Source of the DNA: a virus
Strand: one strand, 5' to 3'
Length of the DNA stretch: 64,000 nucleotides
IMG/VR virus record: IMGVR_UViG_3300045988_077276
Span: 6,783-70,782 of that record
The stretch's first letter is position 1. The number at the start of each line of letters is the position of its first letter. Under the pieces are notes generated by a model. The model had not been told where the DNA came from, searched no databases, and saw nothing but the letters and a program-made list of their open reading frames with translations. The position numbers and the translations under genes were made by a program. Of this stretch, positions 6,417 through 6,726 are shown piece after piece.

Positions 6417-6441
6417 CCACTATGGGTCGCAACTATGGTGG
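6417..6441 (+). ncRNA. conserved hairpin, copy 1 (loop GGGTCGCAACT)
   Basis: Stem ccactat/atggtgg with an 11-nt loop, followed by TCGG. Covaries with copy 2. Confidence 0.5.
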
Positions 6442-6505
6442 TCGGCATGAGCGGGTCGCCGTTAGAGAGGAGTCAGTCTCGAGGTGCCTCCTCACCTACT
6501 CACAT

Positions 6506-6622
6506 GGGGAATTAGTTTAACGGTAAAACACTATGAGGGGTGAAACACTGGTTCGATTCCAGTAAAGTGATGGTTCACAGCACTATTAGTAGAAGATATT
6601 GGTTCGACCCCAATATTTCCCG
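6506..6622 (+). ncRNA. tRNA-like RNA 2 with 68-nt insert in place of the anticodon arm
   Basis: Acceptor ggggaat/atttccc, D-arm gttt-aacggta-aaac, T-arm attgg-ttcgacc-ccaat. The insert holds a second T-arm-like hairpin (actgg-ttcgatt-ccagt) and is flanked by a cactat direct repeat. Confidence 0.5.
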
Positions 6623-6637
6623 TAATTACAATTAAAT

Positions 6638-6662
6638 CTGCTGTGGGTCGCTACCATAGTAG
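6638..6662 (+). ncRNA. conserved hairpin, copy 2 (loop GGGTCGCTACC)
   Basis: Stem ctgctgt/atagtag with an 11-nt loop, followed by TCGG. The stem sequence differs from copy 1 but pairing is preserved. Confidence 0.5.
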
Positions 6663-6726
6663 TCGGAAGTGGGTATCTTTCGTTAAGGGGTGAACGGACG
6701 CTAGCTGTTTATCCGATACCTGCCGA

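Follow-up and report, generated by a model that had tools for sequence, protein, structure and literature searches.

Two small stable RNAs of unassigned function, C and D (species 1 and 2), are encoded within the tRNA cluster of phage T4, co-transcribed with it and matured by the tRNA-processing machinery. Here, we describe an element of about 92 nucleotides (nt) that is likewise a small RNA encoded inside a phage tRNA cluster. It was analysed in a 64,000 nt stretch of viral DNA (IMG/VR record IMGVR_UViG_3300045988_077276, positions 6,783 to 70,782; in the following the window, numbered from its first letter), which contains two copies of 93 nt on the + strand, W1 (6413–6505) and W2 (6634–6726). 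We know of no sequence or structural similarity between this element and the T4 RNAs C and D, and we are not aware of reports that the latter combine a pseudoknot with a palindromic loop. Unlike T4, the phages that carry the element are uncultured, come from the human mouth and have Firmicutes-like promoters.

Several known systems share individual features with the element. In MALAT1/mascRNA and the tRNA-microRNA-encoded RNAs (TMERs) of murine gammaherpesvirus 68, both eukaryotic, a tRNA-shaped element without a role in translation recruits RNase P or RNase Z, resulting in excision of an adjacent structured RNA. The mini-tRNAs of the window similarly keep the arms recognized by those enzymes and lack the anticodon arm and the CCA end; in contrast to mascRNA and TMER the element is bacteriophage-borne and its processing is predicted from sequence. 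With the kissing-loop hairpins of the HIV-1 dimerization initiation site (DIS) and of the oskar and bicoid mRNAs it shares a 6 nt self-complementary loop that varies between lineages yet remains self-complementary. Natural RNAs that form homo-oligomers include ROOL, GOLLD, OLE, manA and EGFOA, and short RNA motifs, some of them phage-borne, form oligomers via kissing loops (PMC12286853; bioRxiv 10.64898/2026.07.01.735769). ROOL, GOLLD and manA are phage-associated, as is our element, which is however much smaller than ROOL and GOLLD, has no Rfam match and forms an oligomer by prediction.

Two further likenesses concern topology. The preQ1-II riboswitch has the same order of segments (S1 5′ strand, S2 5′ strand, S1 3′ strand, hairpin, S2 3′ strand), but the element has no Rfam match and no downstream gene or Shine–Dalgarno sequence to sequester, and has an additional 5′ hairpin and a palindromic loop. 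As in the tRNA-like structures of the turnip yellow mosaic virus (TYMV) type, a hairpin loop pairs with a 3′-proximal strand and some copies end in CCA. The element differs from these in lacking a conserved CCA, a T-loop and a D-loop and in the order and lengths of its parts, and the Rfam tRNA model does not match it.

Overall architecture

An earlier reading of the window from its letters (the sequence-only reading) had singled out two hairpins as a covarying motif with a conserved 11 nt loop. Both hairpins are present, at 6417–6441 (ccactat/GGGTCGCAACT/atggtgg) and 6638–6662 (ctgctgt/GGGTCGCTACC/atagtag); both loops start with GGGTCGC and TCGG follows in both cases. The 7 bp pairing of the stems holds if G·U pairs are allowed, but the real helix, which we call P1, comprises 9 bp and its loop 7 rather than 11 nt, because G1–Y11 and G2–C10 of the supposed loop pair as well. 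These additional loop-closing pairs are G-U and G-C in copy 1 and G-C and G-C in copy 2. In W1 the strands of P1 are 6417–6425 and 6433–6441 and thermodynamic folding gives the loop GUCGCAA (6426–6432); in W2 they are 6638–6646 and 6654–6662, with the loop GUCGCUA (6647–6653). Stems that need G·U pairs fit an RNA transcribed from the + strand.

The hairpin does not stand alone, but is the 5′ helix of an RNA of about 92 nt with four helices. In our preferred explanation the two hairpins are the P1 helices of a structured small RNA that a phage tRNA operon encodes on its + strand; this pseudoknotted RNA would be processed, dimerize and present P1 as a recognition loop. As a whole we give this explanation a probability of about 0.6.

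From 5′ to 3′ the element consists of AAAU, P1 (9 bp, 7 nt loop), a single U, the 5′ strand of helix Pa (CGGNA), 0–3 nt, the 5′ strand of helix P2, the 3′ strand of Pa (UNYCG), a junction J of about 5 nt (UUARG-like), helix P3 (about 10 bp and rich in G·U pairs), the 3′ strand of P2 and a tail of 3–6 nt. The TCGG that had been taken for a trailing tail is thus part of the fold, as its CGG opens the 5′ strand of Pa. The 5′ strand of P2 is enclosed by the two strands of Pa, which makes the pair of helices an H-type pseudoknot; its third loop contains P3. The strands follow the order S1(5′)–S2(5′)–S1(3′)–S2(3′) of this type of pseudoknot and both helices are supported by covariation. It is feasible for the two helices to form together where loop 1 has 2–3 nt and P2 6–7 bp (the L001 type and family 2, see below; L followed by a number denotes a related locus). 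Where loop 1 is only 0–1 nt and P2 9–10 bp long (the L003, L007 and W2 types), either outer pairs of P2 or Pa must open.

W1 (79.1 bits with covariance model R1, described below) shows all of these parts. Its Pa (6443–6461) pairs CGGC (6443–6446) with GCCG (6458–6461) around the 5′ strand of P2 (6448–6456). P3 (6467–6493) pairs GAGGAG (6467–6472) with CUCCUC (6488–6493) and its apical loop contains the palindrome CUCGAG (6478–6483). The 3′ strand of P2, ACCUACUCA (6494–6502), pairs with 6448–6456 and is followed by the tail CAU, after which the next tRNA-like element starts at 6506. W2 scores 92 bits, has a fold z-score of −3.19 and ends one base before tRNA-Met (6727). Here, Pa (6664–6682) pairs CGGAA (6664–6668) with UUUCG (6678–6682) around the 5′ strand of P2 (6669–6677), and P3 (6688–6714) has 10 bp, three of them G·U, and the loop ACGCUAG, which carries the palindrome GCUAGC (6700–6705). 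The 3′ strand of P2 is GAUACCUGC (6715–6723) and the tail CGA. Although the sequences of W1 and W2 differ widely, they have the fold in common.

A stretch at 7349–7425 on the + strand starts with AAAUCC, has the same order of P1, P2 and P3 and may be a third, degenerate copy; its match to R1 is weak (8.1 bits, E = 0.2). Two further hairpins starting with AAAAUCC are seen at about 7316 and about 7345, after the third mini-tRNA.

Covariation

Of the compensatory stem changes that the sequence-only reading had seen between the two hairpins, one is a true double change (C-G to U-A), while the remainder consists of three one-sided transitions. Taken alone, the covariation between the two window copies is modest and suggestive rather than conclusive. 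In the 23 distinct sequences that contain P1, this helix is 95.7% paired and six of its nine pairs show compensatory changes on both sides. That compensatory changes maintain the hairpin in many phages bears out the proposal of a selected RNA structure on the + strand as opposed to a recent duplication that has drifted.

The complete fold was assessed on 31 distinct sequences. The alignment had been fitted to P1, P2 and P3 and is hence biased toward these helices; Pa, which was not part of the covariance model, serves as a check on this bias. Standard pairs make up 96.4% of the 856 pair cells, and 22 of the 30 pairs show changes in both partners. In 500 shuffles none of the pairing measures was reached, and the paired fraction drops to 38–56% when the partner columns are slid by 1–3 positions. 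Pa is 99.4% paired with three of five pairs compensatory (the variants being CG/UA, GC/GU/AU and UG/UA/AU/CG). For P2 and P3 the paired fractions are 93.0 and 97.4%, with six of six and seven of ten pairs compensatory, respectively. A structure-blind MAFFT alignment, used as a sequence-based check, likewise gives 96.4% paired, with 13 compensatory pairs. Two G·U pairs of P3 are retained in 25–27 of the 31 sequences and, together with the G·U pairs in P1, they place the structure on the RNA of the + strand. The junction UUARG and the C-G and G-C pairs of Pa are almost invariant. Otherwise few nucleotides of the element are universally conserved, and P3 occurs as two sequence types.

The P1 loop

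The loop had been thought to be fixed, but seven versions are found: GUCGCAA, GUCGCUA, GUCGCCA, GUCGCUC, CUAGCUA, AUAGCUA and UUAGCUA. Only U2, G4 and C5 are invariant, and the consensus N-U-(C/A)-G-C-N-N has the U-N-purine (UNR) pattern resembling a U-turn. Such a pattern is typical of recognition loops, and P1 as a recognition site for a protein or an RNA, as already suggested by the sequence-only reading, is plausible.

The sequence TWGCGAC, which would be an antisense target of the loop, occurs 18 times in the window (9.3 expected), but these sites are scattered through coding sequence. Complements near the operon correspond to a conserved stretch of helicase codons and to the T-loop of some mini-tRNAs, neither of which covaries with the changes in the loop. 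Intramolecular pairing of the P1 loop, be it with J, Pa or the P3 loop, was also considered and rejected, as no complementarity holds consistently across the loop types.

The P3 loop and predicted dimerization

Of 26 distinct sequences, 23 have a palindrome of 6 nt or more in the apical loop of P3, compared with a mean of 3.1 and a maximum of ten for shuffled loops. Including loci found later, eight versions are known: GGUACC, GCAUGC/AUGCAU, GCUAGC, UGUACA, CUCGAG (in W1), CCAUGG (in family 2), CGUACG and UUGCAA. Changing one version into another requires paired substitutions. Self-complementarity of at least 6 nt is thus kept through sequence change, as in a DIS-like loop, and is maintained by selection.

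An intramolecular fold cannot account for the palindrome because the central four bases (GUAC, CAUG, CUAG, UCGA or UGCA) would have to close a loop of 0–2 nt. A cruciform or a protein site at the DNA level was rejected, as the sequence depends on the lineage and the stem needs G·U pairs. The simplest reading is that two copies of the same RNA would pair via their P3 loops, either as a kissing loop or as an extended duplex, and the element is therefore probably one that pairs with itself to form a homodimer. Nearest-neighbour computation gives self-duplex energies of −4.5 to −8.2 kcal/mol for the palindromes. Between palindromes of the same phage the cross energies are +1.2 (CUCGAG/GCUAGC), −1.5 (GGUACC/CCAUGG) and +0.6 kcal/mol (UGUACA/CCAUGG).

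Distribution and family 2

Further copies of the motif, which the sequence-only reading had proposed to look for, exist. In the window GGGTCGC occurs six times (1.7 expected), and the seven exact matches of a 23 nt degenerate pattern in viral contigs share one and the same context. All seven loci that match the hairpin plus TCGG exactly continue with some 60 nt of conserved sequence that can fold and that stops at the next tRNA. A looser pattern gave 14 true loci. Covariance model R1 was built from 12 distinct sequences and searched against 34 loci fetched via the neighbouring helicase and 11 loci obtained with a metagenome pattern that is independent of P1, giving in total 49 matches that represent 31 distinct sequences. 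The element is present in at least 30 related phage contigs of 64–72 kb, or fragments thereof, from human oral and other metagenomes, and the pattern and neighbour searches returned it only from this one group of phage contigs. At four of the helicase-neighbour loci (L158, L159, L173 and L175) R1 finds no copy even with filters off. In the window and its relatives alike, every copy lies inside a tRNA array and is separated by 0–3 nt from the tRNA or tRNA-like element that follows.

Eight of the distinct sequences, which we term family 2, contain Pa, P2, J and P3 but not P1. They begin 1–3 nt downstream of either a tRNA-Ser(GCU), counted from its CCA, or a tRNA-like element, have the palindrome CCAUGG in the P3 loop and end in the tail GCCAC (L164:8015-8081, L148:7914-7979, L165:7825-7891, L171:7902-7965 and others). 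Because the pseudoknot and P3 occur here without P1, the latter is an accessory domain of the family 1 elements. In several phages a family 2 module and a family 1 copy are found on opposite sides of a single tRNA-Ser.

Neighbouring tRNA-like elements

Each of the two hairpins is preceded by a tRNA-like element, as had been pointed out: hairpin 1 begins 10 nt after the element at 6348–6406 and hairpin 2 15 nt after that at 6506–6622. Relatives have a full tRNA-Phe or tRNA-Gln in this position, so the real link is with tRNA arrays rather than with mini-tRNAs as such.

Mini-tRNA 1 (6348–6406, + strand; 48.4 bits with the Rfam tRNA model) keeps the acceptor, D and T arms. Its anticodon arm is deleted, 15 positions of the tRNA model being replaced by 2 nt, and at its 3′ end A-CAA takes the place of A-CCA. 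The element at 6506–6622 (+ strand; a partial match of 27.6 bits) is composite, with an acceptor stem GGGGAAU/AUUUCCC, one D arm, two T arms (GGTTCGATTCC at 6550 and GGTTCGACCCC at 6601), a vestigial anticodon stem and no CCA. Its appearance suggests either that a T-arm domain was inserted into a mini-tRNA or that two tRNA relics were fused; the same two-T-arm arrangement is found in L146, L152 and L157. Mini-tRNA 3 (7249–7305, + strand; 51.8 bits) again lacks the anticodon arm and CCA.

The elements upstream of family 1 copies form a graded series. It runs from a full tRNA-Phe(GAA) with CCA (L005 and L162) or a full tRNA-Gln (L015, L160 and L174), via tRNA-Phe-like elements in which the anticodon arm is truncated and CAA replaces CCA (L151, with shorter versions in the window, L144 and L145), to such elements into which a second T arm has been inserted (window copy 2, L146, L152 and L157). 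Judged from this series, the mini-tRNAs upstream of the element appear to be decayed tRNA-Phe genes. Despite the loss of the anticodon arm and CCA, pairing of the acceptor stem of the mini-tRNA is preserved by a double change (A3-U70 to G3-C70). The acceptor, T and D arms are the parts recognized by RNase P and RNase Z, and in Firmicutes the absence of CCA marks a precursor for RNase Z. The mini-tRNAs thus probably survive as processing signals for these enzymes.

Comparison with known RNA classes

Searching the 4227 models of Rfam 15, which include preQ1-II, T-box, HDV-like (hepatitis delta virus), pistol, phage pRNA, YrlA, manA, EGFOA, ROOL and GOLLD, against the small search spaces of three loci (the window, L164 and L178) gave nothing that overlaps the element at E ≤ 10. 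With the tRNA model (RF00005, threshold at least 29 bits) there is no match over 6413–6505 or 6634–6726, even at E ≤ 10, nor over the homologues. The tails read CACAU, CAU, CCAU, CCGA or CCAC, with CCA occurring only in family 2 and in some family 1 copies; the conserved 3′ N-CCA of a viral tRNA-like structure with a pseudoknotted acceptor stem is therefore missing, which speaks against this class. A type III antitoxin (ToxI-like) was rejected as there are no tandem repeats of about 35–45 nt; the 93 nt copies are separated by the 117 nt tRNA-like element and short linkers. The neighbours, a DnaB-like helicase and a protein without Pfam match, do not support such a function either. A terminator does not agree with the lack of a U-tract and the position in mid-operon, and an HDV-like ribozyme topology does not agree with the missing P3/L3 segment. 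As expected for a tRNA-punctuated small RNA, the element lies in a tRNA unit and abuts tRNA or tRNA-like processing sites. Literature searches on RNAs of phage tRNA clusters, tRNA-like elements without anticodon arm and phage RNAs with palindromic loops turned up no description of the element.

The transcription unit and its surroundings

The window belongs to a phage, as terminase, portal, capsid, Pol III alpha and C5-methylase are among the encoded proteins. In comparison with cultured phages no close relative was found: a megablast search of positions 5000–8500 against 50,697 GenBank phages returned short tRNA pieces only, hence no cultured relative is known. An identical copy of the helicase protein is encoded on a 70.9 kb contig from a human oral metagenome.

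Between about 5650 and 7575 there is no convincing open reading frame (ORF). This region is flanked by the DnaB-like helicase gene on one side and by a gene without Pfam match on the other. A promoter-like site on the + strand (5665–5693, TTGACT-17-TATTAT with a TG, a match to the consensus) starts a non-coding tRNA/ncRNA (non-coding RNA) unit of about 1.85 kb. On the same strand a long hairpin at 7461–7517, read directly off the DNA and followed by a T-run (TTTTGTTT), is the likely terminator of this unit; the automatic terminator scan passed over it as its loop exceeds 8 nt. The next promoter, with a perfect consensus, follows directly at 7525–7553. Thus, 5665–7517 is bracketed by one promoter-like site and one terminator-like hairpin. 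The unit contains four canonical tRNAs on the + strand (Met-CAU, Ser-GCU, Asn-GUU and Ser-UGA, 6727–7069), each with an encoded CCA, three to four tRNA-like elements without anticodon arm or CCA, and several unassigned RNA stretches.

One of these stretches, the approximately 650 nt of non-coding sequence before the first mini-tRNA (5700–6347), is 69–96% identical across all related phages (homologous to L164:7230-7709, L148:7215-7826 and others). The conservation extends to phages without the element (L158, L159 and L173) and to the more distant L178. Its last 100 nt or so (about 6248–6345) adopt a multi-branched fold with an invariant 9 bp closing stem (UCUACCGCC/GGCGGUAGA) and covarying inner hairpins. 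The stretch has no Rfam match and probably corresponds to one or more further structured RNAs. Near the 5′ end of the operon lies a weak tRNA-like element (5773–5848) with a good T arm (GGTTCGATTCC at 5828), the sole Rfam match of which is tRNA-Sec (17.3 bits, E = 4.3). The approximately 180 nt between tRNA-Ser(UGA) and the third mini-tRNA (7070–7248) contain several stable-looking hairpins, for example CCGAAUG...CAUUCGG with a CUUAAG loop, and have no Rfam match.

In the loci L144–L174 (about 7700–8500) the tRNA sets are very different even though the helicases are 80–98% identical. Ser-GCU and Ser-UGA are almost always kept, while Asn, Thr, Tyr, Leu, Gln, Cys, Phe, Trp and Met vary, which indicates that the array is reshuffled rapidly around constant tRNA-Ser genes. 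A Tad2-like domain (Thoeris anti-defence 2; Pfam PF11195, E = 1.5e-07) is present at the C terminus of the ORF at 2014–2802; one or more candidate anti-defence genes are therefore located near the RNA operon.

Discussion

In the explanation that we prefer, the operon would be transcribed as a single unit from the promoter near 5665–5693. Cleavage by RNase P at the 5′ end of the next tRNA would generate the 3′ end of the element, while its 5′ side would be freed by RNase Z or another nuclease at the upstream decayed tRNA that lacks CCA, the mini-tRNAs acting mainly as processing punctuation. The released RNA would then homodimerize through the 6 nt palindrome of the P3 loop, with paralogues from the same phage carrying different palindromes that are not expected to cross-pair, and the P1 loop with its U-turn-like UNR pattern would be the recognition surface for a putative partner. 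As to a role, our best guess, and a speculative one, is a scaffold or decoy RNA in a conflict between phage and host over tRNA metabolism or defence.

Several points weigh against this explanation. The shuffle controls overstate the significance, since the sequences are related and belong to a single phage clade. The search for a partner of the P1 loop was negative and gave no complementary sequence that covaries with the loop versions. The palindrome is absent in three of the 26 sequences. Where a P2 of 9–10 bp directly follows Pa, steric limits in the absence of a linker mean that Pa and the full P2 may be alternative states, or that outer P2 pairs are opened, rather than there being one static fold. 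Both processing and dimerization are predictions from sequence. Finally, a 19-base pattern gave at least 120 matches in genome contigs; among the matches listed all are chance occurrences in high-GC genomes and none has a P1 stem together with the rest of the element, so absence from bacterial genomes, prophages included, is not established.

A mimic or decoy of tRNA is an unlikely alternative. Here, the stack of P2 (6–7 bp) on Pa (5 bp) would stand in for the 12 bp acceptor/T-arm stack with a CCA-like 3′ tail and P1 for the anticodon/D arm, and the RNA would soak up a host defence enzyme that targets tRNA or an enzyme that modifies it. The total of about 12 bp for Pa and P2 agrees with this, as does the P3 3′ strand, which is continuous with that of P2 in the same way as a T stem runs into an acceptor stem. 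Plant-virus tRNA-like structures moreover have a pseudoknotted acceptor stem of this topology, in which a hairpin loop pairs with a 3′-proximal strand. All family 2 modules end in GCCAC and several family 1 copies in CCAU, the P1 loop retains U at position 2 and GC at positions 4–5, and tRNA-Ser genes adjoin the element in almost every array. Defences that target tRNA and phage tRNA counter-measures are documented as well (PMC13096335). On the other hand, CCA is not conserved, many tails being CACAU or CCGA, the length of P2 ranges from 6 to 10 bp, family 2 entirely lacks P1 and the Rfam tRNA model gives no match. Position 6 of the P1 loop, which would correspond to tRNA position 37, is A, U or C and thus not always a purine, and the palindromic P3 loop is without a counterpart in tRNA. 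We judge equally improbable a purely cis-acting leader or trailer, a structured spacer that controls or protects maturation of the adjacent tRNA-Ser without any function as a free RNA, for example by blocking 5′–3′ or 3′–5′ exonucleases or by timing cleavage by RNase P or Z. Family 1 copies nearly always abut the 5′ end of a tRNA-Ser and family 2 starts 1–3 nt past the CCA of tRNA-Ser(GCU), but the copies in the window precede a tRNA-like element and tRNA-Met instead. A pseudoknot with a covarying self-complementary loop is also far too elaborate for a spacer, and other tRNAs of the same arrays are only 1–6 nt apart.

The well supported H-type pseudoknot with a hairpin in loop 3, together with the nearly invariant UUARG junction and C-G/G-C pairs of Pa, is reminiscent of small riboswitches and ribozymes, and self-cleavage could help to release the RNA. 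A ligand-binding aptamer or self-cleaving ribozyme is nevertheless less likely still: the riboswitch and ribozyme families of Rfam give no match at E ≤ 10, an ORF that could be regulated is missing downstream, universally conserved nucleotides are very few, P3 exists as two sequence types and an equivalent of the HDV P3/L3 is absent. It is very unlikely that the hairpin acts by itself as a binding site, as a literal sequence-only reading would have it. In favour of this are the conservation and covariation of P1 and its partly conserved loop, but in 23 of 23 distinct family 1 sequences P1 is accompanied by the downstream pseudoknot and P3, the converse (pseudoknot and P3 without P1) exists as family 2, and TCGG pairs downstream within Pa. 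Hardly any weight is left for neutral debris, be it a recent duplication or drifting, functionless remnants of tRNA genes. Decayed tRNAs do occur in the operon and one window holds two copies, yet four helices are kept by compensatory changes in 31 distinct sequences, the loop palindrome is retained as eight different versions, and W1 and W2 are far apart in sequence with the same fold.

We thus retain a processed and dimerizing pseudoknotted RNA of the tRNA operon as the best explanation. Its most novel form has somewhat less than an even chance: an undescribed class of phage small RNA, about 92 nt long and pseudoknotted, that would be cut from a tRNA-punctuated operon, self-assemble by a lineage-specific kissing code that is orthogonal between paralogues, and show the U-turn loop of P1 to a partner from host or phage. 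The principles involved, tRNA co-processing, kissing-loop dimerization and the H-type pseudoknot, all have precedents. Neither Rfam nor the literature searched yielded the RNA family, its combination of features or the use of tRNA relics without anticodon arm in a phage operon. As short RNA motifs, some of them phage-borne, were recently shown to oligomerize through kissing loops, the dimer prediction is worth testing, and if our inferences hold, a 92 nt RNA with clear mutational predictions offers an experimentally easy system.

The element is carried by phages that are common in the human mouth. If the inferences are correct, it would constitute a new family of structured RNAs with unusually clean covariation that includes the pseudoknot, and a short natural RNA the evolution of which keeps a loop self-complementary. 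This would be timely, as natural RNA-only oligomers, several of them linked to phages, have been recognized only recently. Phage tRNA arrays would then not just supply tRNAs, but would be operons of multiple ncRNAs that are split by tRNA-shaped processing signals and are missed by annotation pipelines. Should the undescribed class proposed above be real, small phages would possess an RNA-only dimeric scaffold or decoy, and a bacterial virus would provide a case of degenerate tRNAs that are kept purely as processing signals.

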